Origin: Spirochaetia bacterium
Lineage (GTDB): Bacteria > Spirochaetota > Spirochaetia > SP-2023
Direction: 5' to 3'
NCBI GenBank assembly: GCA_965225855.1
Contig: CBDDCK010000005.1
Location: 640,001-704,000, forward strand
DNA length: 64,000 nucleotides
A program made the translations under genes and the position numbers. Shown in pieces: positions 21,108 through 63,464 of this stretch; within the stretch, counting starts at the first letter, position 1; every line of letters starts with the position of its first letter. The notes beneath the pieces are model-generated. The model did not search any database. It saw nothing but the letters and a program-made list of their open reading frames with translations, and was not told where the DNA came from.

Positions 21108-21378
21108 ATGGCAAAAAGAAAGATATATCGATACAAGCAATTCATGCATGTTTTAAAAGAATATCTTGTTATAAAAGTGGTTTATATTGGAATAACAAAC
21201 AATCCAGAAAGACGAGAAAGGGAACATTGCTTAGATGGTAAAAAATTCTCGCATATGAAAGTAGTTTCTATAAGAAGAATGACAAAAGCGGGTGCGAAAA
21301 AAGAGAAGCGAAAAGGTTGGCGCGATATAGAAAAAACCAAGGGAAAATCCCACATATAACAAAAATTCTAACGGTTAA
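21108..21378 (+). pseudogene. Small GIY-YIG-like nuclease, probably frameshifted
   Basis: VVYIGITNNPERREREH; expected C-terminal (E..RL.RY...G.NPTYNKNSNG*) lies in shifted frames ending at TAA 21376-21378. Confidence 0.55.
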
Positions 21379-21700
21379 AATTTAGAGCAAATATAAAAAG
21401 AGCGGTTGCGTTGCGTATGATCGTACTAAACATTTACGATTTTTTGCAATTTTTTGAGACTGCCACAGGCTCGTTGGGAAATCCCTAGGTTGCAAATCAA
21501 AAAAGCTAGTAAGGTTTTGGGCAAAAACCTTACTAGCTTTCTTTAAAAACCTTACTAGCTTTTTGAGACCATGCGCTGTTACCATGATATTTTGATACTT
21601 ACACCATCTTATACCATATTGCTGCCGACAATAACCCATATGCCGAAAAACAAAAATTCTAACGGTTAAAATTTAGAGCAAATATAGAAAGAGCAGTTGC
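21358..21700 (+). repeat. 52-bp direct repeat (21358-21409 and 21649-21700)
   Basis: AACAAAAATTCTAACGGTTAAAATTTAGAGCAAATATA(A/G)AAAGAGC(G/A)GTTGC in both copies. Confidence 0.9.
21466..21640 (-). mobile_element. Probable IS remnant (IS1182/IS5-like transposase C-terminus and right end)
   Basis: Minus-strand peptide YGIRWCKY...TAHGLKKLVRF resembles the DDE transposase tail (GLRR..Y.G...AHNLKKL); followed by GGGATTTCCCAACGAGCCTG, an IS-end-like sequence. Confidence 0.45.
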
Positions 21701-21724
21701 ATACCTTTTTCATTTCGGTTTAAT
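21693..21724 (+). CRISPR. Orphan/degenerate CRISPR repeat separated from the array by 919 bp
   Basis: GCAGTTGCATACCTTTTTCATTTCGGTTTAAT: lacks the first 3 nt and one T of the consensus. Confidence 0.92.
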
Positions 21725-21829
21725 TAGGGCCAGGGCTAGCGAGAATGTGCAGCGTGGTTTGGATAGAGACGCTGGGAAAATTCTTTGGTAAAATTAAAAA
21801 ATAAGAAATTAGGAGTTTTAGGAGTTTTT

Positions 21830-22546
21830 ATGAAAGTTTTTTGGATTGTGAAAATTTTAATGTTTGTGGCGATGATGAGTTACAATCTTTCTGGTGTGTT
21901 GTGGGCTAAGCAGCCGTTGGTGATTGGCGGTACTGTAAATGCTGGCTATACGGGTTTTAGTGGGTCTTGGACTAGCAAAACGAATGGGGTTCTCGATTTT
22001 GAGTGGGACGATGTAACTGGGCTGAGTGTGCCTATTAATGTTTTGGTACATGGGGCTTATGGCTTGAATGATTGGTTTAGCGTTGGCGGTGTGCTTGGGT
22101 TTGGTGTTGGCGTTGATTCTGATTTGGGAACGCCTAAGTATACGGTTAATGGTACTGCTACTGTGCCTTTGGTAGAAAGTGTGGTTGGCGGTTTTAGGAT
22201 TGGGCCTTATTTTCGCTTTGGTTTATGGGGCAAGGATAAAGGCGGGGGTATAGCTGTGGCTGCTTTGTTTATGATTGATTCTTTTCGGGAGCCACAGAGG
22301 TATTCTTTTTATACTGGTAGTGGTTATCTGTATTTGCAGCAAAAAGGCGTTTCGGTGGCTGGTTTGGCTTTAATGAGTGATATTTTTATCAATCGGTATT
22401 TTGGTGTAAATGTTGGTTTGGTTTTTAGTGGTTTGACGAGTGATGGAAACTTTGAAAGGGTGGCTGGCAATAAGTTGGAGCTTAGGGCTGGTGGCGTTGG
22501 CTTTTTGTTGGGGGCTAGTTTTTCTGTGCCGATAAAATTTAAATAA
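21830..22546 (+). CDS. Putative outer-membrane beta-barrel protein lying between CRISPR repeats
   Basis: AGGAG RBS; signal peptide MKVFWIVKILMFVAMMSYNLSGVLWA; alternating Gly/aromatic beta-strands; C-terminal strand GFLLGASFSVP. Confidence 0.75.
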   Translation: MKVFWIVKILMFVAMMSYNLSGVLWAKQPLVIGGTVNAGYTGFSGSWTSKTNGVLDFEWDDVTGLSVPINVLVHGAYGLNDWFSVGGVLGFGVGVDSDLGTPKYTVNGTATVPLVESVVGGFRIGPYFRFGLWGKDKGGGIAVAALFMIDSFREPQRYSFYTGSGYLYLQQKGVSVAGLALMSDIFINRYFGVNVGLVFSGLTSDGNFERVAGNKLELRAGGVGFLLGASFSVPIKFK

Positions 22547-22576
22547 TTTTTTTGTTTTTGCTGGGATAAATTCGTT

Positions 22577-22636
22577 GTTTTTTGCGAGCCCAAACCTATG
22601 TAAGTATTTTATCAATAAATACTTACATAGGGGACT
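22577..22636 (-). promoter_or_regulatory. Inverted leader-like element with 15-bp inverted repeat (22595-22631)
   Basis: Reverse complement aligns without gaps to the leader at 35945-36003. Confidence 0.75.
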
Positions 22637-22643
22637 GAGAATT

Positions 22644-25600
22644 GTTGCAGTTGCATACCTTTTTTCATTTCGGTTTAATAAATTCTTTAGGTCTTTAACT
22701 TTAGCAGTTGTTGCAGTTGCATACCTTTTTTCATTTCGGTTTAATCCGTTGCCACGAAACCTTACCACCAAGGGCGTTGCAGTTGCATACCTTTTTTCAT
22801 TTCGGTTTAATCCTTGGCTTTGATTTTTTGGATATTATTTAGTTGCAGTTGCATACCTTTTTTCATTTCGGTTTAATACCTCTACCCCTATCTCTCCCCC
22901 CACTCCTGTTGCAGTTGCATACCTTTTTTCATTTCGGTTTAATACCTCTACCCCTATCTCTCCCCCCACTCCTGTTGCAGTTGCATACCTTTTTTCATTT
23001 CGGTTTAATCTTATTCTGCTTCTTAAGTCTATTATAGGTGTTGCAGTTGCATACCTTTTTTCATTTCGGTTTAATTCAGACCCAACAGACAAACCATGAC
23101 CGGCAGTTGCAGTTGCATACCTTTTTTCATTTCGGTTTAATGATTTGGATTGTGAATTGTGGTAGGCTATAGTTGCAGTTGCATACCTTTTTTCATTTCG
23201 GTTTAATTGCGCTTAGTCGCAAGGTCAACATCCAGGCGTTGCAGTTGCATACCTTTTTTCATTTCGGTTTAATCCTCTGGAGGCCACAAAGTGTAAGGCA
23301 GTGGTTGCAGTTGCATACCTTTTTTCATTTCGGTTTAATTTACGGGAAATACAAAGATACAATATTTTTGTTGCAGTTGCATACCTTTTTTCATTTCGGT
23401 TTAATATGCCAATAACATCTGGACTATCTCTTTTTGTTGCAGTTGCATACCTTTTTTCATTTCGGTTTAATCCTATAGGGATCACTGGTGGCTCACCTCT
23501 TGTTGCAGTTGCATACCTTTTTTCATTTCGGTTTAATACACATCTTTAATCAAAAATCCTACTTCTTGTTGCAGTTGCATACCTTTTTTCATTTCGGTTT
23601 AATTTCACTGCGACCAAGGGCAATATCCTGTTGGTTGCAGTTGCATACCTTTTTTCATTTCGGTTTAATCTTTGGTGTAATCATAATGTCGAATTTCTGG
23701 TTGCAGTTGCATACCTTTTTTCATTTCGGTTTAATACAAGGTCACGACCGCGACTAGGCTTGTATGTTGCAGTTGCATACCTTTTTTCATTTCGGTTTAA
23801 TTATTCAAGTCACCATACTCACCGGCAGCATGTTGCAGTTGCATACCTTTTTTCATTTCGGTTTAATACAAGGTCACGACCGCGACTAGGCTTGTATGTT
23901 GCAGTTGCATACCTTTTTTCATTTCGGTTTAATTATTCAAGTCACCATACTCACCGGCAGCATGTTGCAGTTGCATACCTTTTTTCATTTCGGTTTAATA
24001 TTAAACGCAACCCCCATTCAGTCGACCTAGTTGCAGTTGCATACCTTTTTTCATTTCGGTTTAATACCATCGCCAGCAACAAGTCTCTTTGCGTGGTTGC
24101 AGTTGCATACCTTTTTTCATTTCGGTTTAATGATTCTACCATTCTCACGCCCTACAAGAGCGTTGCAGTTGCATACCTTTTTTCATTTCGGTTTAATGTG
24201 AGGTATTAACAGCCGATGATATAGTTAGTTGCAGTTGCATACCTTTTTTCATTTCGGTTTAATTTGTCAGCCCAAATTGTTCTTTTGTATTATGTTGCAG
24301 TTGCATACCTTTTTTCATTTCGGTTTAATTATGCGCCCGTGATCTACAATATTATGGTTGTTGCAGTTGCATACCTTTTTTCATTTCGGTTTAATAGAAA
24401 TATCTCTAAGCATATTAAAAATCATGTTGCAGTTGCATACCTTTTTTCATTTCGGTTTAATTCTCTTTCGATACGATGCATCCATTCTTTAGTTGCAGTT
24501 GCATACCTTTTTTCATTTCGGTTTAATAGTAGACATATGCATAACTTTGCCAAGTATGTTGCAGTTGCATACCTTTTTTCATTTCGGTTTAATTTTGTGA
24601 ATGGTCCAGTGTCTGTATTCGTTGTTGCAGTTGCATACCTTTTTTCATTTCGGTTTAATAATTACAACATTCATCGGCAATAAATAAGAGTTGCAGTTGC
24701 ATACCTTTTTTCATTTCGGTTTAATCATTGTACCCTGCGGTGTACGATCAACATAGTTGCAGTTGCATACCTTTTTTCATTTCGGTTTAATTCCAGGAGT
24801 AACCATAACAGAACCCTTAGCGTTGCAGTTGCATACCTTTTTTCATTTCGGTTTAATCATTGTACCCTGCGGTGTACGATCAACATAGTTGCAGTTGCAT
24901 ACCTTTTTTCATTTCGGTTTAATTCCAGGAGTAACCATAACAGAACCCTTAGCGTTGCAGTTGCATACCTTTTTTCATTTCGGTTTAATCATTGTACCCT
25001 GCGGTGTACGATCAACATAGTTGCAGTTGCATACCTTTTTTCATTTCGGTTTAATTCCAGGAGTAACCATAACAGAACCCTTAGCGTTGCAGTTGCATAC
25101 CTTTTTTCATTTCGGTTTAATCATTGTACCCTGCGGTGTACGATCAACATAGTTGCAGTTGCATACCTTTTTTCATTTCGGTTTAATTCCAGGAGTAACC
25201 ATAACAGAACCCTTAGCGTTGCAGTTGCATACCTTTTTTCATTTCGGTTTAATCATTGTACCCTGCGGTGTACGATCAACATAGTTGCAGTTGCATACCT
25301 TTTTTCATTTCGGTTTAATAGTCTTAGGAATGGAGTGGGAAGTCTGAAGGTTGCAGTTGCATACCTTTTTTCATTTCGGTTTAATATTTTTGCCCGTTGT
25401 TTTGCTTTTATTGTGGTTGCAGTTGCATACCTTTTTTCATTTCGGTTTAATAAATTTGCCTGTTTTATATTCTCGTAGTACGTTGCAGTTGCATACCTTT
25501 TTTCATTTCGGTTTAATTGGAAGTCTTGGCTGGTGAAATTGTTAAATGTTGCAGTTGCATACCTTTTTTCATTTCGGTTTAATTGCTTTTTCTTTTTCCT

Positions 25601-28600
25601 GTGTTTTTTCTTGGTTGCAGTTGCATACCTTTTTTCATTTCGGTTTAATTTAGTGAGTGTCTTATTGCCGTCTTGATGGGTTGCAGTTGCATACCTTTTT
25701 TCATTTCGGTTTAATTCGATATTCTAGGCGCTAGTAACGCAGCTGTTGCAGTTGCATACCTTTTTTCATTTCGGTTTAATGCACTGATGCATAAATAGCT
25801 AGGTTTATCGGTTGCAGTTGCATACCTTTTTTCATTTCGGTTTAATTCGATATTCTAGGCGCTAGTAACGCAGCTGTTGCAGTTGCATACCTTTTTTCAT
25901 TTCGGTTTAATGCACTGATGCATAAATAGCTAGGTTTATCGGTTGCAGTTGCATACCTTTTTTCATTTCGGTTTAATTCGATATTCTAGGCGCTAGTAAC
26001 GCAGCTGTTGCAGTTGCATACCTTTTTTCATTTCGGTTTAATCCTCTGGTAATTCTCCAAGGCTTCGATGCAGTTGCAGTTGCATACCTTTTTTCATTTC
26101 GGTTTAATCCTCTGGTAATTCTCCAAGGCTTCGATGCAGTTGCAGTTGCATACCTTTTTTCATTTCGGTTTAATTTTTAGGTCGTGATGGTGAAGAGCTG
26201 GAAGGTTGCAGTTGCATACCTTTTTTCATTTCGGTTTAATTAAACAATATTAAAGGCAAGTTTATCTTGTGTTGCAGTTGCATACCTTTTTTCATTTCGG
26301 TTTAATAAAATCCAAACAAATCATTCAACAAAACAAGTTGCAGTTGCATACCTTTTTTCATTTCGGTTTAATTTCTGGGATATGATCAAGCGTTTCGCTG
26401 GCGTTGCAGTTGCATACCTTTTTTCATTTCGGTTTAATCCGTAGAGACAACATTATGAATAAGCGAAGGTTGCAGTTGCATACCTTTTTTCATTTCGGTT
26501 TAATAGTAGTAACAAGACCAAAATGAACATTTCCGTTGCAGTTGCATACCTTTTTTCATTTCGGTTTAATAGTAAAACCTCCTACGTCTGCGCATAAAAT
26601 GTTGCAGTTGCATACCTTTTTTCATTTCGGTTTAATATAATTATTTTATTCTCCACCCCTATAAAAGTTGCAGTTGCATACCTTTTTTCATTTCGGTTTA
26701 ATTGTGGCAATTGCCCAATTCGGGATATTTTCGTTGCAGTTGCATACCTTTTTTCATTTCGGTTTAATTAGCAGACCGTAAGGACTTACCAAGAGCTTGT
26801 TGCAGTTGCATACCTTTTTTCATTTCGGTTTAATTAAAAAGGTTGTTACGAGCACTGTAGAACAGTTGCAGTTGCATACCTTTTTTCATTTCGGTTTAAT
26901 TTAAGCGTTGCTGGGCTAAAGGTAATGTGTTGCAGTTGCATACCTTTTTTCATTTCGGTTTAATTGTAATTTCTACTGCTGTAGATTAGATAAAGTTGCA
27001 GTTGCATACCTTTTTTCATTTCGGTTTAATTGTAATTTCTACTGCTGTAGATTAGATAAAGTTGCAGTTGCATACCTTTTTTCATTTCGGTTTAATAGCC
27101 TTTACCAAGTTCTTCCACCCAATCATGTTGCAGTTGCATACCTTTTTTCATTTCGGTTTAATTGACCCGTCAACAGGTCAGTTTCGGCCTTAGTTGCAGT
27201 TGCATACCTTTTTTCATTTCGGTTTAATATATAAATGCTAAGTAATACCTCCGAATTAGTTGCAGTTGCATACCTTTTTTCATTTCGGTTTAATAATAGC
27301 AATTGGACAACCGAAAGCAAAGGGTTGCAGTTGCATACCTTTTTTCATTTCGGTTTAATAGCCTTTACCAAGTTCTTCCACCCAATCATGTTGCAGTTGC
27401 ATACCTTTTTTCATTTCGGTTTAATTGACCCGTCAACAGGTCAGTTTCGGCCTTAGTTGCAGTTGCATACCTTTTTTCATTTCGGTTTAATATATAAATG
27501 CTAAGTAATACCTCCGAATTAGTTGCAGTTGCATACCTTTTTTCATTTCGGTTTAATGAAAACCTTGAGTAACATAAACCGGTGTAGGTTGCAGTTGCAT
27601 ACCTTTTTTCATTTCGGTTTAATATAAAAAAGCTCGGCCTGCTTGTTCAGTGTGTTGCAGTTGCATACCTTTTTTCATTTCGGTTTAATAGCCCCAGTCG
27701 TTTTTTATGAATGTTTTGAGTTGCAGTTGCATACCTTTTTTCATTTCGGTTTAATCCCAATACTACCCAAATCTCCCTCATCCTTGTTGCAGTTGCATAC
27801 CTTTTTTCATTTCGGTTTAATCCTAATACCACCCAAATCTCTCTCATTCTTGTTGCAGTTGCATACCTTTTTTCATTTCGGTTTAATCTAGGTCTGTATT
27901 TGATCTATCTCATTCTGGTTGCAGTTGCATACCTTTTTTCATTTCGGTTTAATATTTGTAGATTGTTCTACCATAGAAGATTGGTTGCAGTTGCATACCT
28001 TTTTTCATTTCGGTTTAATAATACCGATTATCTACAGACTGGCAAGCGAGTTGCAGTTGCATACCTTTTTTCATTTCGGTTTAATATTTGTAGATTGTTC
28101 TACCATAGAAGATTGGTTGCAGTTGCATACCTTTTTTCATTTCGGTTTAATAATACCGATTATCTACAGACTGGCAAGCGAGTTGCAGTTGCATACCTTT
28201 TTTCATTTCGGTTTAATATTTGTAGATTGTTCTACCATAGAAGATTGGTTGCAGTTGCATACCTTTTTTCATTTCGGTTTAATAATACCGATTATCTACA
28301 GACTGGCAAGCGAGTTGCAGTTGCATACCTTTTTTCATTTCGGTTTAATAGCCCCAGTCGTTTTTTATGAATGTTTTGAGTTGCAGTTGCATACCTTTTT
28401 TCATTTCGGTTTAATCCCAATACTACCCAAATCTCCCTCATCCTTGTTGCAGTTGCATACCTTTTTTCATTTCGGTTTAATATAATACTTACTCCATTGT
28501 GTAAGGCTGGGGGTTGCAGTTGCATACCTTTTTTCATTTCGGTTTAATGTGTATCATAGTAGGTCTTGAATCTAGGTGGTTGCAGTTGCATACCTTTTTT

Positions 28601-31600
28601 CATTTCGGTTTAATCCAACCAAGCAATCGCAGCAAAACTGCCAGGTTGCAGTTGCATACCTTTTTTCATTTCGGTTTAATAAAATAATCTTTACCCCAGC
28701 AACGAGTCTGGTTGCAGTTGCATACCTTTTTTCATTTCGGTTTAATGCATGGACAAGAGAATGCCGCAGAAACCTTGTTGCAGTTGCATACCTTTTTTCA
28801 TTTCGGTTTAATCCACAGAACAAAAACCTAAGACTTGGTTGGGTTGCAGTTGCATACCTTTTTTCATTTCGGTTTAATAGATATAAGATGCGGATTGCGC
28901 TTAGTCGCGTTGCAGTTGCATACCTTTTTTCATTTCGGTTTAATATTCCTGCCAAAATAGCGCCTATAGCCATAGTTGCAGTTGCATACCTTTTTTCATT
29001 TCGGTTTAATCATAACATGATCGATATGATGGCGCATTTTGTTGCAGTTGCATACCTTTTTTCATTTCGGTTTAATACTCTTAGGAATAGTATGAGAAGT
29101 CTGTAGGTTGCAGTTGCATACCTTTTTTCATTTCGGTTTAATTTTTTCTTCCGTGCTTATTAATATTTTATTGTTGCAGTTGCATACCTTTTTTCATTTC
29201 GGTTTAATATTTATGTTGCATATAACAACCTCCTATAAGTTGCAGTTGCATACCTTTTTTCATTTCGGTTTAATCTTCTCAGCCAATTCACGTTGATGAT
29301 TCTTGTTGCAGTTGCATACCTTTTTTCATTTCGGTTTAATACCATGACCGGCCATCGTGCCCTGCGGTGTGTTGCAGTTGCATACCTTTTTTCATTTCGG
29401 TTTAATCAGACCAAGCAGACCATCGGACTTAATCCTGTTGCAGTTGCATACCTTTTTTCATTTCGGTTTAATAAATAGATTCTGGTCTCTATAGAATTCC
29501 TTGTTGCAGTTGCATACCTTTTTTCATTTCGGTTTAATAATAGCCTGATCCAAAGGAAGATCACCTTCGTTGCAGTTGCATACCTTTTTTCATTTCGGTT
29601 TAATGAGACTACCGGCTTCATATTTGGGCTTTGAGTTGCAGTTGCATACCTTTTTTCATTTCGGTTTAATAAATAGATTCTGGTCTCTATAGAATTCCTT
29701 GTTGCAGTTGCATACCTTTTTTCATTTCGGTTTAATAATAGCCTGATCCAAAGGAAGATCACCTTCGTTGCAGTTGCATACCTTTTTTCATTTCGGTTTA
29801 ATGAGACTACCGGCTTCATATTTGGGCTTTGAGTTGCAGTTGCATACCTTTTTTCATTTCGGTTTAATATTTTCACAAAACCTTCACACTCACTCTCTGT
29901 TGCAGTTGCATACCTTTTTTCATTTCGGTTTAATAGTAAAATCATAAAGGATAAAGTAATATTAGTTGCAGTTGCATACCTTTTTTCATTTCGGTTTAAT
30001 ACCCCAACAACGAACCTGAAGATCGTAAGTGTTGCAGTTGCATACCTTTTTTCATTTCGGTTTAATCCTACAACCCTTCACAACTCACTCATAATCGTTG
30101 CAGTTGCATACCTTTTTTCATTTCGGTTTAATTTATACTGGCGCTAATGTTGGTGAGGATGTGTTGCAGTTGCATACCTTTTTTCATTTCGGTTTAATGA
30201 GACTACCGGATTCATATCTGGAGCTTGCGTTGCAGTTGCATACCTTTTTTCATTTCGGTTTAATAATTCTTAGATAATATCCATTTAGGGCTAAGTTGCA
30301 GTTGCATACCTTTTTTCATTTCGGTTTAATTAGTCATAAACAAACTTTCTAAAGAATATTGTTGCAGTTGCATACCTTTTTTCATTTCGGTTTAATTTTC
30401 TGGTGGTGTGGGCTCGGCAAAATCCAGTTGCAGTTGCATACCTTTTTTCATTTCGGTTTAATAATGATCAGCGCCCAACCAGATAACTTTGTGTTGCAGT
30501 TGCATACCTTTTTTCATTTCGGTTTAATTTTCTGGTGGTGTGGGCTCGGCAAAATCCAGTTGCAGTTGCATACCTTTTTTCATTTCGGTTTAATTTTGCT
30601 TTCTTGAATCTGCTTGTATTTTAGGTTGCAGTTGCATACCTTTTTTCATTTCGGTTTAATTTTGCTTTCTTGAATCTGCTTGTATTTTAGGTTGCAGTTG
30701 CATACCTTTTTTCATTTCGGTTTAATTCGGAAACAGTTATGCCAGTAGCATTGGAAGTTGCAGTTGCATACCTTTTTTCATTTCGGTTTAATACGATCAA
30801 CCTCGGCTTGAATCTGCTTGTATTTTAGGTTGCAGTTGCATACCTTTTTTCATTTCGGTTTAATCTACCCAAATGCCAATAATCATAAGTAGTAGTTGCA
30901 GTTGCATACCTTTTTTCATTTCGGTTTAATTCAGCTAGCAGAGATTCATGATACAGTTCTGTTGCAGTTGCATACCTTTTTTCATTTCGGTTTAATCGAT
31001 CATGTATTAAAGCAATCTTCTCACGGGTTGCAGTTGCATACCTTTTTTCATTTCGGTTTAATAGGTCACTAACGCGGCGCTGTACAGAAGTGTTGCAGTT
31101 GCATACCTTTTTTCATTTCGGTTTAATAATCCAAACCATCGTGGTAGATGGCGTAGCGTTGCAGTTGCATACCTTTTTTCATTTCGGTTTAATATGAAGG
31201 TTTATTTTGTGCCTTATGGGCTTGTTGCAGTTGCATACCTTTTTTCATTTCGGTTTAATCTCATTTCTCTCATCCTTCACAACCTTCCAGTTGCAGTTGC
31301 ATACCTTTTTTCATTTCGGTTTAATATCAAAAATAGTTTTTTGAAGAGATTTCTGGTTGCAGTTGCATACCTTTTTTCATTTCGGTTTAATTCGCTACCA
31401 ACAGAAAGACCATGACCGGCAGTTGCAGTTGCATACCTTTTTTCATTTCGGTTTAATAAAGGCTAGATTTTCTAAGGTTGGGCCTTTGTTGCAGTTGCAT
31501 ACCTTTTTTCATTTCGGTTTAATAAATTTTTATCAAAATAATGGCCACCTTGCGTTGCAGTTGCATACCTTTTTTCATTTCGGTTTAATAGGAAACTTCT

Positions 31601-34600
31601 TTCCTTGACAAGGCATATTGTTGCAGTTGCATACCTTTTTTCATTTCGGTTTAATACTTAGATTTTTAAGTGCTTCTACAGGTGTGTTGCAGTTGCATAC
31701 CTTTTTTCATTTCGGTTTAATCTATTGATTATGGGCCTGTTGGGCTCTTGGGTTGCAGTTGCATACCTTTTTTCATTTCGGTTTAATTAAAAAATCGTCA
31801 ATGTCGCTACTGTGTCGGTTGCAGTTGCATACCTTTTTTCATTTCGGTTTAATCTTAAATTTGTAACTTTTTTATAATTTTTGGTTGCAGTTGCATACCT
31901 TTTTTCATTTCGGTTTAATCTGCTTAATTTTTTAGCTTGGAGACTTGTGTTGCAGTTGCATACCTTTTTTCATTTCGGTTTAATTTTATCAACATCTCCA
32001 ATCTACACCAGTAGGTTGCAGTTGCATACCTTTTTTCATTTCGGTTTAATGCGAGAGCCAGCACGGGCGTTACGCTCAAGGTTGCAGTTGCATACCTTTT
32101 TTCATTTCGGTTTAATTACCCCAACAGCGAGTATGAAGTTTCTGCGGTTGCAGTTGCATACCTTTTTTCATTTCGGTTTAATCTAAAGACTCTAGCTCTT
32201 TCTCCTTTTGCAGTTGCAGTTGCATACCTTTTTTCATTTCGGTTTAATTACTCTTTAAGTAGATCGTTATCTATACCAGTTGCAGTTGCATACCTTTTTT
32301 CATTTCGGTTTAATTGTAACAACCCCCGAATGTAGGCTTGGATAGTTGCAGTTGCATACCTTTTTTCATTTCGGTTTAATAAAAGTATCGCCCAAAACAG
32401 GAGCAGTCACGTTGCAGTTGCATACCTTTTTTCATTTCGGTTTAATTGGCCGGTCAAAAGGTCAGTCTCAGCCTCAGTTGCAGTTGCATACCTTTTTTCA
32501 TTTCGGTTTAATTAGCAAAGCTAAAGGTAATTGGCAAGGTGGGTTGCAGTTGCATACCTTTTTTCATTTCGGTTTAATAAATCCAGAAACTAGCAGGCCT
32601 TTTAGTTGGTTGCAGTTGCATACCTTTTTTCATTTCGGTTTAATTCAAGGGCCATCGTAATGCGACGAATGCGGGTTGCAGTTGCATACCTTTTTTCATT
32701 TCGGTTTAATATAATTACAAAAACCCCAATACAGAAGCAGGTTGCAGTTGCATACCTTTTTTCATTTCGGTTTAATTTGAGCACGGAGAAATTAGAAGAT
32801 ACAAAGGTTGCAGTTGCATACCTTTTTTCATTTCGGTTTAATTCACTCCTTACCTTAAGCAATCCTTGATTGGTTGCAGTTGCATACCTTTTTTCATTTC
32901 GGTTTAATAGCCACGTTATCATGGATCGCATAAAGTTTGTTGCAGTTGCATACCTTTTTTCATTTCGGTTTAATAAGGCTGCATGCGTATAACAAGATTG
33001 CACCGTTGCAGTTGCATACCTTTTTTCATTTCGGTTTAATCTTGTTAAGCTTTTTAAGCCTATTATAAGTGTTGCAGTTGCATACCTTTTTTCATTTCGG
33101 TTTAATTCTGTATTTCAGCAATACTAGGTTTCTATTGTTGCAGTTGCATACCTTTTTTCATTTCGGTTTAATATACCTGTGATGCCGTCTGTACATTAAA
33201 ACGTTGCAGTTGCATACCTTTTTTCATTTCGGTTTAATATATAAAAAAGCATCAATAGATTCACCCTCGTTGCAGTTGCATACCTTTTTTCATTTCGGTT
33301 TAATAAATTCCACAAGGTCAAAAATTATTTGCAAGTTGCAGTTGCATACCTTTTTTCATTTCGGTTTAATAAAAAAGAAAAATCCAGAAAGAACAGGACA
33401 GTTGCAGTTGCATACCTTTTTTCATTTCGGTTTAATTACAATTATTGGCAATAATAGAGATATGCTGTTGCAGTTGCATACCTTTTTTCATTTCGGTTTA
33501 ATCAAGGCTAGCGACTTCTGCAGCCAATTTGTGTTGCAGTTGCATACCTTTTTTCATTTCGGTTTAATTTGTTAGCACTTCTGCCGCTTCTGGTATTGGT
33601 TGCAGTTGCATACCTTTTTTCATTTCGGTTTAATTATTATAGGTAGATTTGCGCAAAGAGTCAAGTTGCAGTTGCATACCTTTTTTCATTTCGGTTTAAT
33701 TGTGAAAAATAGCTCCTACATTTTTTTTCTGTTGCAGTTGCATACCTTTTTTCATTTCGGTTTAATTCATGCATAAGACGAAGACCCCACTCGAAAGTTG
33801 CAGTTGCATACCTTTTTTCATTTCGGTTTAATCAACCTTCTGAGATTGACCGGTCAACAGATGTTGCAGTTGCATACCTTTTTTCATTTCGGTTTAATTA
33901 ATATAGCAATCCATTGCTAATATTTCTAGTTGCAGTTGCATACCTTTTTTCATTTCGGTTTAATTCCACATCGGGAGATTAAATCATGCAGATAGTTGCA
34001 GTTGCATACCTTTTTTCATTTCGGTTTAATAACGGTGCTTGTAACAACCTTCTTGGCGACGTTGCAGTTGCATACCTTTTTTCATTTCGGTTTAATTTGG
34101 CTATATATAAGTAGGTTTTGGGCACTGTTGCAGTTGCATACCTTTTTTCATTTCGGTTTAATAAAAGTATCGCCTAATACAGGAGCAGTCACGTTGCAGT
34201 TGCATACCTTTTTTCATTTCGGTTTAATTTGTTTAGTTTTTCAGTCTTCACTATTATAGTTGCAGTTGCATACCTTTTTTCATTTCGGTTTAATGAAAAG
34301 GCCACCAAAACCTTCACGTGTCAAGTTGCAGTTGCATACCTTTTTTCATTTCGGTTTAATAGAAATATACAGTGGAATCAAAAGAATTAGGTTGCAGTTG
34401 CATACCTTTTTTCATTTCGGTTTAATTTCGGCCTTACGAACCTTGTCAACCTGAGCGTTGCAGTTGCATACCTTTTTTCATTTCGGTTTAATCATATTAA
34501 GGTCGCCGTACTCACCACAACAGTTGCAGTTGCATACCTTTTTTCATTTCGGTTTAATTTTTTTGTATTGGTCGATTATCTTGGTACTGTTGCAGTTGCA

Positions 34601-35944
34601 TACCTTTTTTCATTTCGGTTTAATTATCCTGAGATCGTTGACCGTTATCATTGTGTTGCAGTTGCATACCTTTTTTCATTTCGGTTTAATCGTTTAGTGG
34701 CAAGATCAACATCTAAACCAGTTGCAGTTGCATACCTTTTTTCATTTCGGTTTAATACATTCCGCACACGGTCATAGTCAACCTGTGTTGCAGTTGCATA
34801 CCTTTTTTCATTTCGGTTTAATCATAGGCTTGTTTTTGTTCATAGCTTAGTTGTTGCAGTTGCATACCTTTTTTCATTTCGGTTTAATTACCATCGTTGT
34901 CACCTAAAGTAGAAACATGTTGCAGTTGCATACCTTTTTTCATTTCGGTTTAATTCAATTGTGTTTTTTTGCTTGTCAAAGGCTGTTGCAGTTGCATACC
35001 TTTTTTCATTTCGGTTTAATCAAAGAGTCAAGCGTTTTTTGATGATTTTCGTTGCAGTTGCATACCTTTTTTCATTTCGGTTTAATAGATTTCTGGTATT
35101 CAAAAACATTCTTTCTGTTGCAGTTGCATACCTTTTTTCATTTCGGTTTAATTTAGGATCAGAAGCAATAATGCGCCTAGCAGTTGCAGTTGCATACCTT
35201 TTTTCATTTCGGTTTAATATAGGCTGAAACCGTATAACAAGATTTGCAGTTGCAGTTGCATACCTTTTTTCATTTCGGTTTAATAAAAATCAAAGCTTAT
35301 TCAGCTTCTTTAACGTTGCAGTTGCATACCTTTTTTCATTTCGGTTTAATAGCCACATTGTCGTGGATCGCATATAGTTTGTTGCAGTTGCATACCTTTT
35401 TTCATTTCGGTTTAATAGCGCTAGTGCCGTCACGGCCACCAGTAATGTTGCAGTTGCATACCTTTTTTCATTTCGGTTTAATAATTGCCACAATCCATAA
35501 ACTGGCAAACAAGTTGCAGTTGCATACCTTTTTTCATTTCGGTTTAATATGCTGATGATCTCAATAAGTTTTTGTCCTGTTGCAGTTGCATACCTTTTTT
35601 CATTTCGGTTTAATAATTGCCACAATCCATAAACTGGCAAACAAGTTGCAGTTGCATACCTTTTTTCATTTCGGTTTAATTTTTTGCTATATAAGGTAGG
35701 TTTTGACACTGTTGCAGTTGCATACCTTTTTTCATTTCGGTTTAATGACCACTGCCAACGAATCGGCAGCAATTTGGTTGCAGTTGCATACCTTTTTTCA
35801 TTTCGGTTTAATAATCTAATCTACAACAGTAGAAATTTGAAGGTTGCAGTTGCATACCTTTTTTCATTTCGGTTTAATACCTTCTCACGAGACCTCTTCG
35901 TCTCTCTTGTTGCAGTTGCATACCTTTTTTCATTTCGGTTTAAT
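22644..35944 (+). CRISPR. Type II-C CRISPR array, 202 repeats / 201 spacers (mostly 30 nt)
   Basis: Repeat GTTGCAGTTGCATACCTTTTTTCATTTCGGTTTAAT, 66-bp period; first repeat starts 22644, last 35909. Orientation + inferred from tracrRNA anti-repeat and a -10-like TTTAAT at each repeat end, as in Neisseria II-C. Confidence 0.99.
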
Positions 35945-36010
35945 AGTCCCCTAGCTAAGTAGTTGTTTTCACATTGCTTAGCTAGGTATGGGCTTGAGAA
36001 AAAATGCAAT
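35945..36010 (+). promoter_or_regulatory. CRISPR leader (cas-proximal) with inverted repeat CCTAGCTAAGTA...TGCTTAGCTAGG
   Basis: Abuts the last intact repeat on the cas2 side; a near-identical copy follows the degenerate repeat at 36551. Confidence 0.7.
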
Positions 36011-36240
36011 TCAACACAGTAAAAGGGCTTGTTCTCTGGCACTTTTTTTGCTGTTATCGCGTTTGTGCTGGCTGTAGCTGCTGATGTTCGCATATTGTAT
36101 ATCCGTTATCGTTATTATATCTACCTGTCCCCCCTTCGGGGGGAGAGAGTTTTTGATTCACTCTAATAATCGCTTGCGTTGTTTATTGCCGCCAGCAAAT
36201 TTATAGTATACAGAATATTGGGCCATAGTAAAGTCTTGTT
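36011..36240 (-). pseudogene. cas2: cas2 3' fragment, diverged duplicate with in-frame stop
   Basis: Translates FTMAQYSVYYKFAGGNKQRKRLLE*IKNSLPPKGGQVDIITITDIQYANISSYSQHKRDNSKKSAREQALLLC*, colinear with the intact cas2. Confidence 0.9.
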
Positions 36241-36340
36241 CCGCCTTGCTATAATATATCTCTCCGCCTTGGATCAAGGCCTTGTTCCACCTTGCTATAA
36301 TATATCTTTCCGCCTTGGATCAAGGCCTTGATCCAAGGCG
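36235..36340. repeat. 46-bp repeat element (2.3 units) ending in a perfect 30-bp palindrome (36311-36340)
   Basis: CTTGTTCCGCCTTGCTATAATATATCTCTCCGCCTTGGATCAAGGC units; palindrome CGCCTTGGATCAAGGCCTTGATCCAAGGCG. Confidence 0.85.
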
Positions 36341-36516
36341 CTTGTTTTTAATTACATGCCTTTAAGCAAGTTAGTGATACCAAAAAACTGGTGGCGTCTT
36401 TGATTACGCCAAAGATGGGATACCCAGCCATGAAAAATAAACCCAAACGCCCACCCAGCGTATTGTAGAAAGCCGAAAGAGCTTAAATAAACAGGGCTTG
36501 CGGCCCATCTAAAAAT

Positions 36517-36549
36517 AGCTTGCATACCTTTTCTTCATTTCACTTTAAT
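36517..36549 (+). CRISPR. Solitary degenerate CRISPR repeat next to intact cas2
   Basis: AGCTTGCATACCTTTTCTTCATTTCACTTTAAT versus consensus; followed by a leader copy. Confidence 0.8.
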
Positions 36550-36613
36550 TAGTGCCCTAGCTAAGTAATTTTTTCAGATTGCTTAGCTAGGCATGGGTTT
36601 GGGAAAAGGCCAT

Positions 36614-36949
36614 TCAAAACAGTAAAAGCGGTTGTTCTCTGGCACTTTTTTTGCTGTTATCGCGTTTGTGCTGGCTGTAGCTGATGATATTGGCATATTG
36701 TATATCCGTGATTGTAATTATATCTACTTGCCCCTTCTGGGGTAGGGCACTTTTGATTAACTCTAGTAGTCGCTTGCGCTGCTCGCTTCCGCCAGCAAAT
36801 TTATAGTATACAGAGTATTGGGCCATAGTAAAGCCTTGCTCTAATAGAAACTGGCGAAAGCGCGTGGCTTCTTTGCGTTCTTGTTGTTCCACTACTGGTA
36901 GGTCAAACATTAGATATAGCCACATCACTTTGTAAGGGTTAAGGCGCAT
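36614..36949 (-). CDS. cas2: CRISPR-associated endonuclease Cas2
   Basis: MWLYLMFDLPV...FRQFLL..GFTMAQYSVY...ITDIQY; downstream of cas1. Confidence 0.96.
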   Translation of the reverse strand: MRLNPYKVMWLYLMFDLPVVEQQERKEATRFRQFLLEQGFTMAQYSVYYKFAGGSEQRKRLLELIKSALPQKGQVDIITITDIQYANIISYSQHKRDNSKKSAREQPLLLF

Positions 36950-37905
36950 AGTTCTACTACATCAATAGCGGTTTGCTCATCTAAGGTGATTGGCTCTAGC
37001 TTTTGTTGCTTGCCCTCTAACACCATGCAAAAGTTTTGCACATAGCGCAGCTCTTGGCGCATTAGGTAGCTTTGTTCGTTGCTGTAATCTAGTTCTTGGC
37101 GTAGTAACTGACTAAGCGCTCGCTTACTTTCGCTATTCAGTTCACGATAACCCCAATGGTAGTATAGGTGGGTAACAAAGGCGTCTACCAACGGGCGTAG
37201 GGTTTCCATAAGGTCGCTAGCTAGGCAATAGGGGTTTTGGCTGTTGCAGTGCTGTATGCCAAACGCCCCCAGTAAACCGCAGCAATTGATGGCTCGTATC
37301 ACACAACCCAGCAAAATGGTATAGCCGTAGTTGAGTAAGCCATTGGGCGGCATTGGCCCCAAACGGCGGAAGTCATCGCCAAATAGCATAGGCCAATAGC
37401 GTTGGGCAGCTGTAGCTTCTAGCATCGTGCTGTCCCCGCTTTGTACCTTTTCGGCCATCGCCAGCAGTTCATTGGCTAAGGCTTGTTCTTCATTTGCTTC
37501 TAGGCAGTGGCGATTGTCCCAACCGAAGCTGGCAGCCATTTGCAATAGCCAGGCTTGGTTGCGTATTTTGTTTTGTACCACCCCTTGCCAGAGCCGTTTC
37601 TTTTTGGGCAACTTGGCCTCTACTTGTAGCCGTACCCGTTGTTGCAAACGGCTATGGCCGTCTAATGGCAGCATGGCTACCGAAGGTAAGTAGTCCGCAC
37701 CGCACAATAGCACAGGGATATTGCGCTTAGCCAATTGGTTTAGCAACGGTGTACTGACTGTGGATTGCGGACTATTCAGCAATAGCACGCCAATACGCTC
37801 TAGGTCTACAAGGTGCTTTTGGCCATTGCGCAGTAGTTCCAGATGGCCCCGCTTTTGGTGTAGGTAGCAGCCGCTGCTTTCTACTTCTATTACTTGTTCG
37901 TACAC
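36925..37905 (-). CDS. cas1: CRISPR-associated endonuclease Cas1 (type II)
   Basis: KIRNQ, SGD...EATAAQRYW..LFG, NGLLNYGYTIL, GIQH, LASDLMETLRPLVD. Confidence 0.96.
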   Translation of the reverse strand: MYEQVIEVESSGCYLHQKRGHLELLRNGQKHLVDLERIGVLLLNSPQSTVSTPLLNQLAKRNIPVLLCGADYLPSVAMLPLDGHSRLQQRVRLQVEAKLPKKKRLWQGVVQNKIRNQAWLLQMAASFGWDNRHCLEANEEQALANELLAMAEKVQSGDSTMLEATAAQRYWPMLFGDDFRRLGPMPPNGLLNYGYTILLGCVIRAINCCGLLGAFGIQHCNSQNPYCLASDLMETLRPLVDAFVTHLYYHWGYRELNSESKRALSQLLRQELDYSNEQSYLMRQELRYVQNFCMVLEGKQQKLEPITLDEQTAIDVVELCALTLTK

Positions 37906-37914
37906 AGAGGCCTA

Positions 37915-40900
37915 CTACCTATGGCGAACCCAGCCGCCGGGGCTAATGTATACCGCTTGGCATTGCATCTCGTCTCCAAAGATTTTGCTGATCACTTTGT
38001 ATTTCTGGGGGCTATTGGCTTCAATTAGGGGCCGTATATCTAATTTATCGTTTGTAGCGGAATATCCTTTCACCAAGTAGTATTGGCCATCGGCCTTACT
38101 GTACAAAGTGTCATTCTTATAAAGCCTAGTAAGGTGTTCGGCAGAATCTGGTGCTGTTTGCTCCTGCTTGCGTTGGGCTTGGTAGTAGCTAGTGAAGGTT
38201 ACTTTGTATTCTGCCTTACTACCGTTTACAGTGCGCCATATATCGCAGTAAGCATAGCCATCGGGCATGTAGTATTGTGGGCTGCTGGTTTTTGGCTGTA
38301 CTAGGGTTTGGTCTTTGGGTATGTAGCGTACCTTCTTGATGCCATGCTTTGCCCCATAGTCTTTGATGAAACTTTCCCAAGAGAGCTTCTTATCACCATC
38401 ACTTTGTTGCGCTTGGTAGGCCTCTTTTAGCCTTGTGCGCAGGCCATCATCAACTGGGCCTTGATAGCCTTGTTCCAGTGGCTCACAGTCTTTCTCTGTT
38501 ATCCCGCTTAGTAGCTTGCTGTTGACAAAGTAGCCATGCCAATAACGCAGGCCTATCTTGGGGTGTTCTAGCGCAAAGGCTTTGTGGCCTTCGTTCCATA
38601 ATTTTCCCAATGGTCCTTTTTGTGTTCTTTGTAGTAGTGCTTGGGTCTCTTGCTCTAGCTGTAGCAACTGGCCCCGTTGGGGTTTTATGGTTGCTGCTAT
38701 CTGGCGTAGTTCGCTTATCGAGCCTTGCAGTTCTTGTTGTTTCTTGCAGTTTGCTTTTGTGTTCTGGGCTTGGGCCGGGTTTGTTTCGGGCCGAGTAGCA
38801 ATATAATCCAGCAGCCAATGGGCTTGCTCTGGCCGTACCAACAATGGTAAGTTTTCACGCAGTGTTTTGCCATCTATAGCGCTAATTGCTTTGTAGATTA
38901 AACCATTCGCCGTTTCTGCAAACATCGCACTGTTATGGCTATGATCCTGTTTGTGGGACACAATGATACTGCTTACCACCGTTTCTATTTGCTGGCGTAA
39001 ACCCTGTCGTTCCCCAGCCATGCGCTGCATGGCATAGCGTTGCCTCCGCTTAGCTGTTTTCAGTTCTTCAGCTTCTTTGCCCAATAACTGGTCTTGACTA
39101 AATGCAAAGTAGCCACTCAAGCGTTTGAGCAAACTGCGGTCAATCATCGCTACCACTATCGCATCTATCGCATGGTGGCGGTGGTCATTGCGGTTTTTCT
39201 TTTTATGTTTGGGGTTCTCGTTGAGCAGACTATTGAGATTCAGGTTGTCCCGCAGCATTTCCGTTATGTGGCCATTGCTAGCCCACACTTGCGGGCAAAT
39301 AGATTGTAGATACTGCATAGCCTTACGGGCAATATAGGCGTTATCGGTAGTTTGCCTAGCCAAGAAGTGGTCATCGCTTTCATACCGTTTCATCGCTTCC
39401 GCTGTAAAGTGTTCTTGCTTGTTCTTAGGTAGGTTTCCGGTAGCTTGTTTGATTCGTTGCCAACGTTCCGCATCGTGGCCAAAAGCCTCGTAAGGGCTAC
39501 GGTCTCCCTTTTGGCGGTTGCAGGCCGTGTGGCTTAGCGTTAGGTTTGCCATACCATTATCTAAGGTACGGCTAAAGGGCAAGATATGCTCTATCTCCAC
39601 TCGGTTGTCGGGGCTAAATAAATCACTCGCAGGGATTTTTACGCCACAGTAAGGGCACTTTGCCGTAGTGTTCTTTAGGGCTAGCTCTTCATATAATTGC
39701 AGCTTGCGGCGGTCGTCCCTGCTGGGGTAGTGAATATTGTAGTTTTCCCGCAATTCTTTGTTCCGCCGCTCGTTTTGCTTTTTGTTCTCATTTTGTAGCT
39801 TGCTGATCTCGGCCTTGGCTTTGCGGCTATTCTTTAGGTCGCGCCCCAATTCAACCACCACCTCATCGGGTAGGCCATAATGGCCTATTATATCATTGAC
39901 TACCTTACGCACTTGGTTTAAGGCCACATGCACGGTTGGGTTGCCAATACGGCCATACTTAGCTTCATCACTGTTTATCTCTAAACCGGGCTTATTCTTT
40001 TGCAGCTTTTTGAGTGGGTAACATGATTCTGGCATTGCAGCACCATAATAGGGTAAAGTCGGCAGCAGCTGGCTCTTCTTCTGTTTATCGACACGCAGTT
40101 TCTGTAAATGGGTTGCACCGCCATCATCGGGGTATTGTTCCAATAAATAGTGTAGTACCTCCCGTTGCAGGCAGGCACTTAGCTCTGTCGTACCTGTCGG
40201 AAGTTCATAGGCAAATAGTGCTTGGCATTGTTGTTCACTTAGCCCCAGTTCTCTAAATGGCTGTAGCAGTTTGTCTTGCTCGTTATCCTTGGCATAGGTA
40301 AACAGCATAACCTTTTCACAAAGGCTATCTTGTTCCTCTAAGTTCAGCTTATGCCAGTGTTCTTTTCCAAAAAACTCGGGCTTTTGCATCTCTACATTGA
40401 CTACAGCACCCTCTAACTCTTCTTTACGGTTCTTTTCTAAGTTAAAGGTAATATTTTCGCTCCAGCCGAACATTTTGCGTATAGCTTTGAAGGTCATGCT
40501 TTTGCAGTTACACAGCTTATTGTAGAGCTGCAAGCGTTCTTGATTGTTTAAACTTATCTGGCTACCATGTTCATCTATCATGCGTAAGTTCAGCACGTTT
40601 TGGGCAATACGCAGCCGTTCACTACTGGGCTGGCTTTTATAGGCTCGGTCTTCATCTTCGTAGTACCAGCATTTGCCCCGTTCTGGTTTCTGTAAAGGCC
40701 GTTGATAAAATAGAATCTGCTCTAGCGTATCCCAATTGATGTTCTCAAAAGCTGGGTACTGGCTTTGCTGCTGCCTAATCGCTCTAAACTCATCGCGATA
40801 CATTTGTCTGTTGGCATAGAAATCGCCTATATCGGCCTGGGTGTTTTGCTCTCCTGCGGCTGTTGTAGCTTTGTCATTGCGGAAGCGTACACTTTGTTTT

Positions 40901-41457
40901 GCCTTTTTGCGTTGGTAGAGCCATGTACCCAAAGTAGCGTCTTGTGCCAAGGTTTGCTCCAACTTACGAATGCGCTGTAAATTGGCGCGCTCTTCCTTCT
41001 CTTTTTCTGTTGCTTTGTCTTCAGTTTTACTTTGTTTCCGATTACTTTGGTAGCCACGCCTCTGGCACAAGTGGAATAAAGCCCGCCCAAGTTCGTAAGG
41101 TTTTAGCTCTTGCTTCACCGCTAAAGAGCGCAATCGGTATGGGTCTTGTTTCATCAAGCTTGTATTTTCTGGGCTGTTGGGTGGTGGCAATAGCCCTTGT
41201 TGTTGTAGTTCTTTGGCAAATTTAGCCACGCGCCGTTTTAACCTACGTAGTCTGCGCCGACTACCTCTAGCCTCACGGCGAGCTACAGCTAACGAAGAAT
41301 CTTTTTCATCTCGACCATCACTAAATATACGCACTCCAGCCGTTTCTAACTGCTTTAGCGTATAAGTCTTTTTGTTTGCTTCTTTAGCATCTAGGCTCCA
41401 AATAGACCAGCCTATAGAATTTGTTCCTAGGTCTAAACCTAAGCGGTAAGGTTTCAT
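37915..41457 (-). CDS. cas9: Type II-C Cas9 (1180 aa)
   Basis: RuvC-I LGLDLGTNSIGW, Arg-rich bridge helix, NPTVHVALNQ, HNH EIEHILPFSRTLDN..N..CN..KG, RuvC-III HHAIDA; no csn2 or cas4. Confidence 0.97.
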   Translation of the reverse strand: MKPYRLGLDLGTNSIGWSIWSLDAKEANKKTYTLKQLETAGVRIFSDGRDEKDSSLAVARREARGSRRRLRRLKRRVAKFAKELQQQGLLPPPNSPENTSLMKQDPYRLRSLAVKQELKPYELGRALFHLCQRRGYQSNRKQSKTEDKATEKEKEERANLQRIRKLEQTLAQDATLGTWLYQRKKAKQSVRFRNDKATTAAGEQNTQADIGDFYANRQMYRDEFRAIRQQQSQYPAFENINWDTLEQILFYQRPLQKPERGKCWYYEDEDRAYKSQPSSERLRIAQNVLNLRMIDEHGSQISLNNQERLQLYNKLCNCKSMTFKAIRKMFGWSENITFNLEKNRKEELEGAVVNVEMQKPEFFGKEHWHKLNLEEQDSLCEKVMLFTYAKDNEQDKLLQPFRELGLSEQQCQALFAYELPTGTTELSACLQREVLHYLLEQYPDDGGATHLQKLRVDKQKKSQLLPTLPYYGAAMPESCYPLKKLQKNKPGLEINSDEAKYGRIGNPTVHVALNQVRKVVNDIIGHYGLPDEVVVELGRDLKNSRKAKAEISKLQNENKKQNERRNKELRENYNIHYPSRDDRRKLQLYEELALKNTTAKCPYCGVKIPASDLFSPDNRVEIEHILPFSRTLDNGMANLTLSHTACNRQKGDRSPYEAFGHDAERWQRIKQATGNLPKNKQEHFTAEAMKRYESDDHFLARQTTDNAYIARKAMQYLQSICPQVWASNGHITEMLRDNLNLNSLLNENPKHKKKNRNDHRHHAIDAIVVAMIDRSLLKRLSGYFAFSQDQLLGKEAEELKTAKRRQRYAMQRMAGERQGLRQQIETVVSSIIVSHKQDHSHNSAMFAETANGLIYKAISAIDGKTLRENLPLLVRPEQAHWLLDYIATRPETNPAQAQNTKANCKKQQELQGSISELRQIAATIKPQRGQLLQLEQETQALLQRTQKGPLGKLWNEGHKAFALEHPKIGLRYWHGYFVNSKLLSGITEKDCEPLEQGYQGPVDDGLRTRLKEAYQAQQSDGDKKLSWESFIKDYGAKHGIKKVRYIPKDQTLVQPKTSSPQYYMPDGYAYCDIWRTVNGSKAEYKVTFTSYYQAQRKQEQTAPDSAEHLTRLYKNDTLYSKADGQYYLVKGYSATNDKLDIRPLIEANSPQKYKVISKIFGDEMQCQAVYISPGGWVRHR

Positions 41458-41534: not shown

Positions 41535-41541
41535 AGCTTCC

Positions 41542-41665
41542 GTTGAACCGAATTGAAAACAGGTATGCTTGGGCTATACGCTTAGCTGCCAACAAGCCTT
41601 GTAAGAGGCGCAAAATTATGGCTTAACTTCAATTAGTTTCCTTTTTGAAGTTAAGCCAGTTTTTT
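41542..41665 (+). ncRNA. tracrRNA
   Basis: GTTGAACCGAATTGAAAACAGGTATGC...CTGCCAAC complementary to the repeat; short nexus-like hairpin; terminator TGGCTTAACTTCAA/TTGAAGTTAAGCCA plus T-run. Confidence 0.9.
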
Positions 41666-41691
41666 ATTTCTTTTATTGAACATAAAAAATG

Positions 41692-63137: not shown

Positions 63138-63464
63138 TCAATTATTGATCGGATGAACGATAGGCCATGTCACTTGCTTGAGCTCCTTGCCCGCACGGAA
63201 TAACGGTACCCCATGGCTTTCGACAGAAGTAATCTCACCTGTTCTCGGATTACGAGCTTTCTCTTTGCCTTTTCGTGTCCGCACCTCAAAAGTACCAAAC
63301 CCCCGTAACTCGATCACTTTATCCTCTTCTAGCGCATTTTTTACGTTTTCAAAAAAATGATCCAAAATCAACTTAATATCTTTACGATCCAAGTGAACTT
63401 GTTCTTTTAGATCATTTTGAATGTGTTCAACTAGTTCGGCTTTAGTTACTTTTTCTCTTTTCAC
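63138..63464 (-). CDS. HU/IHF-family DNA-binding protein (Hbb-like)
   Basis: TKAELV, IELRGFGTF, ARNPRTGE; adjacent to rpsT as in Borrelia. Confidence 0.92.
   Translation of the reverse strand: MKREKVTKAELVEHIQNDLKEQVHLDRKDIKLILDHFFENVKNALEEDKVIELRGFGTFEVRTRKGKEKARNPRTGEITSVESHGVPLFRAGKELKQVTWPIVHPINN

Follow-up and report, generated by a model that had tools for sequence, protein, structure and literature searches.

The CRISPR array in the window (the whole 64,000-nt stretch of DNA from a Spirochaetia bacterium that was analyzed) lies between two homologous sequences that face inward: the leader on its right, referred to as leader A, and an inverted sequence on its left, referred to as the left copy. 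We estimate a probability of roughly 65% that the left copy is the stranded leader of a related, oppositely oriented cas2–leader module, which was carried on a gene insert into the oldest slot of the array, likely no longer directs insertion, and forms a predicted hairpin hiding an extraneous guide. According to this reading, the leader palindrome would be left over from the related module, and a 919-bp gene insert would have brought it into the oldest slot, either by recombination between repeats or through an aberrant Cas1–Cas2 event. The left copy is probably a fossil, most likely one showing the swap and stacking of II-C modules at one site, and a secondary role for it is plausible. The original prediction, which described two inward-facing leaders and offered two-ended acquisition, a relic of an oppositely oriented array, or a protein-bound boundary to explain them, is partly supported. 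The features of the locus, in window positions, are as follows.

21690–21724, plus strand: degenerate repeat with three 5' mismatches and one T missing, overlooked in the original prediction
21725–22643, no strand: insert of 919 bp in the array's oldest 'spacer' slot, between the degenerate repeat and repeat 1
21785–22546, plus strand: ORF of 253 aa from a TTG or 238 aa from the ATG at 21830, predicted outer-membrane beta-barrel
22555–22569, plus strand: possible remnant of a lost cas2, comprising its last five codons and stop (a weak match; p=0.01 against copy A, 0.09 against copy B)
22570–22636, minus strand: left copy, an inverted II-C leader homolog identified by homology to the locus's own leaders
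22637–22643, no strand: 7-bp filler separating the junction position of the left copy from the GTTG end of repeat 1
22644–35944, plus strand: CRISPR array of 202 identical 36-nt repeats and 201 spacers (171 distinct), from a repeat search
35945–36010, plus strand: leader A, abutting the last repeat at the probable acquisition end, with its palindrome centred 23.5 nt from the junction
36011–36241, minus strand: 3' fragment of cas2, interrupted by an internal stop and sharing 87% aa identity with the intact cas2 by sequence comparison
36513–36613, plus strand: degenerate single repeat B (about 36513–36549) and leader B (36550–36613), with the third palindrome copy
36614–41457, minus strand: type II-C operon of cas2 (36614–36949), cas1 (36925–37905), and cas9 (37915–41457), from ORFs and Pfam
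41540–41666, plus strand: tracrRNA candidate, pairing with the plus-strand repeat at -39.9 kcal/mol and ending in a hairpin and U-run

Homology and register of the left copy

A repeat search of the window retrieved positions 22578–22636 and 35945–36003 as an inverted repeat of 59 nt at 73% identity. The minus strand from 22636 and the leader at 35945 read as quoted in the original prediction, and their gapless alignment was confirmed, with 43 of 59 positions identical (5' arm 15/17, loop 6/13, 3' arm 9/12, tail 13/17); the difference of TG/CA versus GC/GC is present, and pairing is kept. Because two palindromes match twice for each chance event, the null consisted of 2,000,000 random palindromes that retained the left copy's own pairing, none of which reached 43 matches (maximum 39, mean 15.7). 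Searches by BLAST, by pattern, and with a DNA profile revealed three copies of the palindrome in the 2.7-Mb genome, all at the II-C locus: the left copy on the minus strand, the copy at 35945, and a third at 36551, beside the intact cas2, which the original prediction had missed. The next nhmmer profile match after these had E=0.051. The genome does contain many dispersed palindromic repeats; however, the null result and the confinement of all three copies to one locus indicate that the palindrome is neither a chance similarity of unrelated hairpins nor a common dispersed, REP-like repeat. This explanation, the second half of which the original prediction had named as its own refutation, is itself refuted and retains a negligible probability. 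Three palindrome variants in one genome, one in register with a long array, one with a collapsed array, and one 7 bp off at the wrong end, make it possible to test the requirements of a II-C leader. Among four genomes of the genus, only this one contained the exact palindrome pattern, and the two matches of the pattern in viral contigs, viewed with about 100 bases of flank per side, had the palindromic core alone in common. Comparison with phage records by blastn and with Rfam gave no match.

The core palindrome of the left copy spans 22595–22631, its native junction position lies at 22636|22637, and its A-tract occupies about 22578–22583 on the minus strand. In a sliding comparison with 29 foreign leaders, the left copy matched a leader from another family (L170, genome G065) at 27 of 42 positions without gaps at offset 7 (0/2000 shuffles) and one from the same genus (L002, genome G001) at 22 of 42 at offset 8 (p=0.0125). 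Four of the 29 leaders fell below p=0.05 and 25 did not; the other two of the four, L186 at offset 8 and L004 at offset 12, were in other or weakly supported registers. Matches summed over the foreign leaders peaked at offsets 7–8 (394, 450) compared with 346 at offset 0, suggesting that the left copy's own junction lies 7–8 bp short of repeat 1. The 7-bp gap to repeat 1 (22637–22643) given in the original prediction is real, but repeat 1 is not the outermost repeat, as the degenerate repeat at 21690–21724 lies beyond it. Judged by homology in register with authentic leaders (43/59, 27/42, and 22/42), the left copy is a II-C leader by descent.

The nearest match of the left copy is leader A (30/42), as would be expected if it were a local inverted duplicate of leader A kept as a protein-bound boundary, occupied by an IHF/HU-like protein or by Cas1–Cas2 and serving, for example, in array looping or as a decoy. 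Three IHF/HU-family genes in the genome, one of them in the window at 63138–63464, and the conserved half-site spacing would suit such a boundary. However, L170 is matched at 27 of 42 positions by the left copy and at 21 by leader A. The left copy thus has states in common with a foreign leader that are absent from leader A, a pattern better explained by a foreign origin than by decay of a local duplicate. Moreover, the left copy sits on a gene insert, and the other arrays examined have no such copy. The TATCAA that the original prediction called IHF-like is present at 22610–22615, but it does not belong to any match to the IHF consensus WATCAANNNNTTR, which has no match with at most one mismatch in 22570–22643. 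Such matches numbered 144 in the window, with 134 expected, and the one-mismatch site in leader A at 35956–35968 corresponds to chance frequency. The consensus comparison thus lends no support to an IHF-bound boundary, and we regard a duplicated and retained boundary as an unlikely account. We infer that the left copy came from another module rather than from local duplication.

Consistent with an origin beside cas2, the distance from stop to junction is 67 nt for the possible cas2 remnant and the left copy, compared with 66 nt and 64 nt from the cas2 stops to leaders A and B. Against this, no cas gene remnant longer than five codons was found to support the lost module. In sequence, palindrome, A-tract, and stop-to-junction distance, the left copy agrees with the locus's own leaders and with those of related II-C loci. 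Unlike the type II-C leaders between cas2 and the array known from N. meningitidis, R. anatipestifer, and F. columnare (PMC12477760, PMC6008519, PMC8092290), it lies at the opposite array end, is inverted and 7–8 bp off the junction, adjoins the 5' end of the repeat, and has no cas2 beside it. We also surveyed leader–trailer homology in other arrays. Twenty-five were fetched, three ended at a contig or stretch edge, and none of the 22 scored showed such homology (lowest p=0.07), some of which may stop short of the true trailer; this array scored 28 (0/300 shuffles). The relic of an oppositely oriented array, one of the options in the original prediction, is supported by leader identity, homology, offset, and spacer polarity.

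On the right side, the operon contains cas9, cas1, and cas2 without csn2 or cas4, the gene content of type II-C, and is flanked by the array and an ABC transporter. The sequence at 35945, called the cas-side leader in the original prediction, is indeed a leader, but it adjoins the broken cas2 fragment and not the cas operon. A dispersed palindromic repeat at about 36230–36341 truncates this fragment. Leader A with the cas2 fragment is 86% identical to leader B with cas2, which suggests replacement of one II-C module by another or stacking of the two, and leader B keeps one degenerate repeat. Since module stacking is already visible at the locus, the left copy is more readily read as a relic of a further module. 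Relatives of Cas1 among the genome contigs are distant (33–39%), and synteny with relatives was uninformative, with ppdK found in one of three.

Direction of array growth

Sixteen pairs of distinct spacers overlapped, compared with 0 of 16,638 in the shuffled control. In fourteen of these pairs both members had the same strand, and in the other two (offsets -5 and -2) they lay in opposite orientation; exact shared 3' ends occurred in eight of the 16, all same-strand, including s6/s158, s7/s133, and s41/s98. Spacers s1–s5 overlapped no other spacer, and the uniform polarity applies from s6 on. The caveat of the original prediction that most spacers entered with one polarity, based on spacer 7, is in line with the s7/s133 pair, which shares strand and exact 3' end, and with the uniformity from s6 on. 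The plus strand is presumably the crRNA strand. By eye, five of seven overlap-derived 3' flanks of at least 5 nt fitted NNGNT, and none of the six spacers that match their own genome perfectly (22812, 24132, 30931, 31128, 32315, and 33305) had an NNGNT flank at the matched site; among the own-genome matches, s129 falls on a multi-copy repeat. The presence of these flanks in the overlaps and their absence at self matches place the PAM end on the right. Exact multi-copy spacers amounted to 24/67 in the left third of the array, 26/67 in the middle, and 2/67 in the right, and s4 is identical to s5.

According to the passages available, new spacers have their PAM end turned toward the leader (PMC8092290) and II-C arrays grow at the cas2-side end (PMC6008519, PMC12080349). 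Spacer polarity, the PAM side, and the gradient of duplicated spacers together suggest that the right end of the array is new and the left end old, and that new spacers enter at leader A (35945). Two-ended acquisition, in which Cas1–Cas2(-Cas9) would also integrate at repeat 1 under the guidance of the left copy, could draw on a near-complete leader facing the array, an intact repeat 1, and the suggestion, in the part of the source available, that II-C may include subgroups differing in acquisition end (PMC12638026). However, the left copy is offset by 7–8 bp and faces the 5' (GTTG) end of repeat 1, whereas working leaders abut the opposite, cas-side end. From s6 on, the spacers beside it are neither the newest nor turned with their PAM end toward it: s6, s7, and s41 share strand and register with right-hand spacers, and left-inserted spacers would be reversed on the crRNA strand, judging from the passages of PMC8092290. 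Duplicated blocks are also concentrated on the left and in the centre. The evidence thus argues against integration at the left copy, and two-ended acquisition, as put forward in the original prediction, is very unlikely.

Searches in three relatives gave no protospacers apart from repeat matches. The full repeat had no match in metagenome contigs; a 16-nt part of it gave 119 stretches with a single match, and one of the 80 fetched held one repeat-like match, with no array of this repeat among them.

The genome also carries an array of 323 repeats (G000:C5:1074339-1094683), which from its appearance we take to be type V-A. Six II-C spacers overlap spacers of this array, suggesting that both systems sampled the same invaders. 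Spacers 66/67 and 200 (26965–26994, 27031–27060, and 35813–35842) match the V-A-like repeat with non-native flanks and in opposite orientations; their target may be a mobile element with its own V-A repeat or mini-array.

The insert and the old end of the array

The insert comprises the ORF at 21785–22546, followed by the left palindrome and 7 bp at its end. The ORF belongs to no Pfam family and a protein search returned no relative but itself; one homolog of 30% identity is present in genome G002, and its flanks, where viewed, contain no repeat. Its neighbours in the Atlas score 0.97 and several are outer-membrane beta-barrel clusters, so the product is predicted to be an outer-membrane beta-barrel. 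The degenerate repeat at 21690–21724 is likely the true trailer, or extra, repeat. Speaking against the favoured reading, repeat 1 is a perfect copy, whereas 60% of II-C extra repeats are mutated, according to the passages available (PMC12080349). The sequence after the degenerate repeat was compared with the leaders and with the left end, and the likeness was rejected (p=0.10–0.21). An origin of this repeat as the tracrRNA anti-repeat of a lost module was not favoured either, as by inspection it is a near-perfect repeat copy with no bulge. The sequence that leads into the degenerate repeat recurs as a 40-bp direct copy (95%) beside a dispersed multi-copy repeat (21361–21409; 21435–21658). Contig depth over the insert is 27 versus 10.6, probably owing to repeat words in the contig.

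A second II-C locus (G000:C5:896071-906679) has cas9 followed directly by cas2, with no cas1 ORF between, and 59 repeats. Near the old end of its array, one repeat is split by a 2.7-kb insert with ORFs that by eye resemble a transposase, presumably IS1595-like, and a DNA methylase. Insertions at the old end of an array are thus not rare in this genome, and both cases place foreign DNA between the oldest repeats; unlike the insertion in the second array, the 919-bp insert has no transposase, splits no repeat, and ends in a leader homolog.

Sequences from other samples cover the old end. A contig of public run X1, which may be the source sample, spans 21657–22679 with no differences. In run X4, from another study, a 151-nt contig corresponds to 22480–22630 with eight differences, six of which are listed and all of those outside the palindrome; it shows that the 3' end of the insert gene and the hairpin are linked in a second allele, and X4 pieces of the insert gene differ by 3–10%. 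A perfect left palindrome with none of the listed allele differences inside it could mean that the left copy is still under selection, but a lack of change over about 33 nt of palindrome in the X4 allele is not significant. Another X4 contig joins the 21175 region directly to a repeat with three differences, followed by 91 letters unlike the window, indicating strain-to-strain variation at the old end of the locus. An X5 contig contains the repeat followed by leader A. The sequences from other strains do not extend across the junction with spacer 1.

The 919-bp segment could instead be a 'giant spacer', that is, a gene-bearing fragment ending at a foreign leader junction that Cas1–Cas2 put between repeats and that was then domesticated, with the old repeat driving the outer-membrane gene and the captured leader re-used as a guide-blocking insulator or an occasional second integrase docking site; we consider this quite improbable. 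Whole-gene capture as a spacer, or integration at the left copy, would, if true, change the view that arrays grow at one end and with short spacers only. No report of two-leader or gene-interrupted arrays was found in the literature searched, mostly papers outside subscription.

Leader palindromes, predicted folding, and a present role

We examined 38 Cas1 loci, 34 of which had an array within reach (this locus and its close kin included, the kin not being independent). The best inverted repeat was centred within 30 nt of the cas2-side junction in 26 of these 34 arrays, a count made without a null and with kin that are not independent. Many related II-C leaders (among L002, L170, L012–L015, and L171–L194) contain an inverted repeat with its centre 12–30 nt from the junction, which often starts with AG and is followed by an A- or T-tract. 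In G001, a genome of the same genus, the leader carries an identical TAAGTA-N13-TACTTA core, whose centre lies 22.5 nt from the junction. In an alignment of four sequences, both-sided changes affected three of 14 palindrome pairs; the G001 leader is unlike both leaders A and B at two of these pairs and unlike leader A at the third. Ordinary leaders of the clade therefore differ in the same manner as the left copy, and the compensatory change stressed in the original prediction reflects the normal evolution of a II-C leader palindrome and is not by itself proof of selection at the left site. The junction-adjacent palindrome of many related II-C leaders is little characterised in the open literature, although Santiago-Frangos et al. 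2021, on leader motifs, may already describe it.

The left element had folding z-scores of -4.8 on the plus strand and -5.7 on the minus strand. Its hairpin has a core stem of 15–17 bp, and 23 of the 25 nt preceding repeat 1 are paired in the MFE fold; mean pairing probability over these 25 nt was 0.81, compared with a mean of 0.49 and a maximum of 0.76 for the other 201 repeats. The stem exceeds the helix of at least 8 bp, overlapping the 25 nt upstream of the first repeat, by which guide-sequestering hairpins are recognised (Feussner et al. 2025, PMC12080349). In the accessible passages of that paper, guide-covering helices are reported to be over-represented ahead of II-C arrays, and one of them is shown to block targeting in C. 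jejuni. The left hairpin is like these hairpins sequestering an extraneous crRNA guide in that a strong helix takes up most of the 25 nt in front of the first full repeat, 3' of a co-oriented gene; it differs in being a recycled inverted leader, and leader homologs are not described in those passages.

Transcripts of the insert gene would run into repeat 1. The repeat contains the hexamers TTGCAT-N17-TTTAAT, which lie below the filter of a consensus promoter scan, so read-through transcription is assumed. As the predicted hairpin pairs most of the 25 nt upstream, a spacer-less RNA made from repeat 1 is predicted to be poor at loading or targeting. With up to four mismatches allowed, the genome offers no further site for the 20-nt extraneous guide. 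On these models, a guide-sequestering hairpin is the likely present effect of the left copy, which would make it a naturally occurring example of a leader put to new use as a guide-blocking hairpin.

Alternatively, the left copy may be kept for its minus-strand RNA structure, which would cap or stop antisense array transcripts in the way that leader A would cap sense pre-crRNA and so insulate both array ends. The crRNA strand gives the more stable fold for leaders A and B (-25.1 vs -17.0 and -28.0 vs -16.5) and for 27 of the 34 related leaders (base skew not controlled). An outer helix of five pairs, one of them G-U, is formed by the minus strand of the left copy and by the plus strand of leader A but not by their opposite strands. 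The leader of the second II-C locus is a hairpin followed by a T-run. In contrast, an A-tract and not a U-tract follows the left hairpin; no U-tract was found after it on either strand and a terminator scan made no call, so the hairpin is not of the Rho-independent class. A relic of a leader would keep the same fold in any case, and such a copy occurred in none of the 22 other arrays. A retained antisense cap is hence rather unlikely, and we favour the stranded leader.

Another structured RNA of the locus is the tracrRNA candidate at 41540–41666, which has the complementarity to the repeat expected for type II-C and gave no Rfam match at gathering score. Its anti-repeat (41540–41600) is interrupted by a 15-nt insertion between the upper and lower stem, a larger bulge than is known for other Cas9 tracrRNAs.
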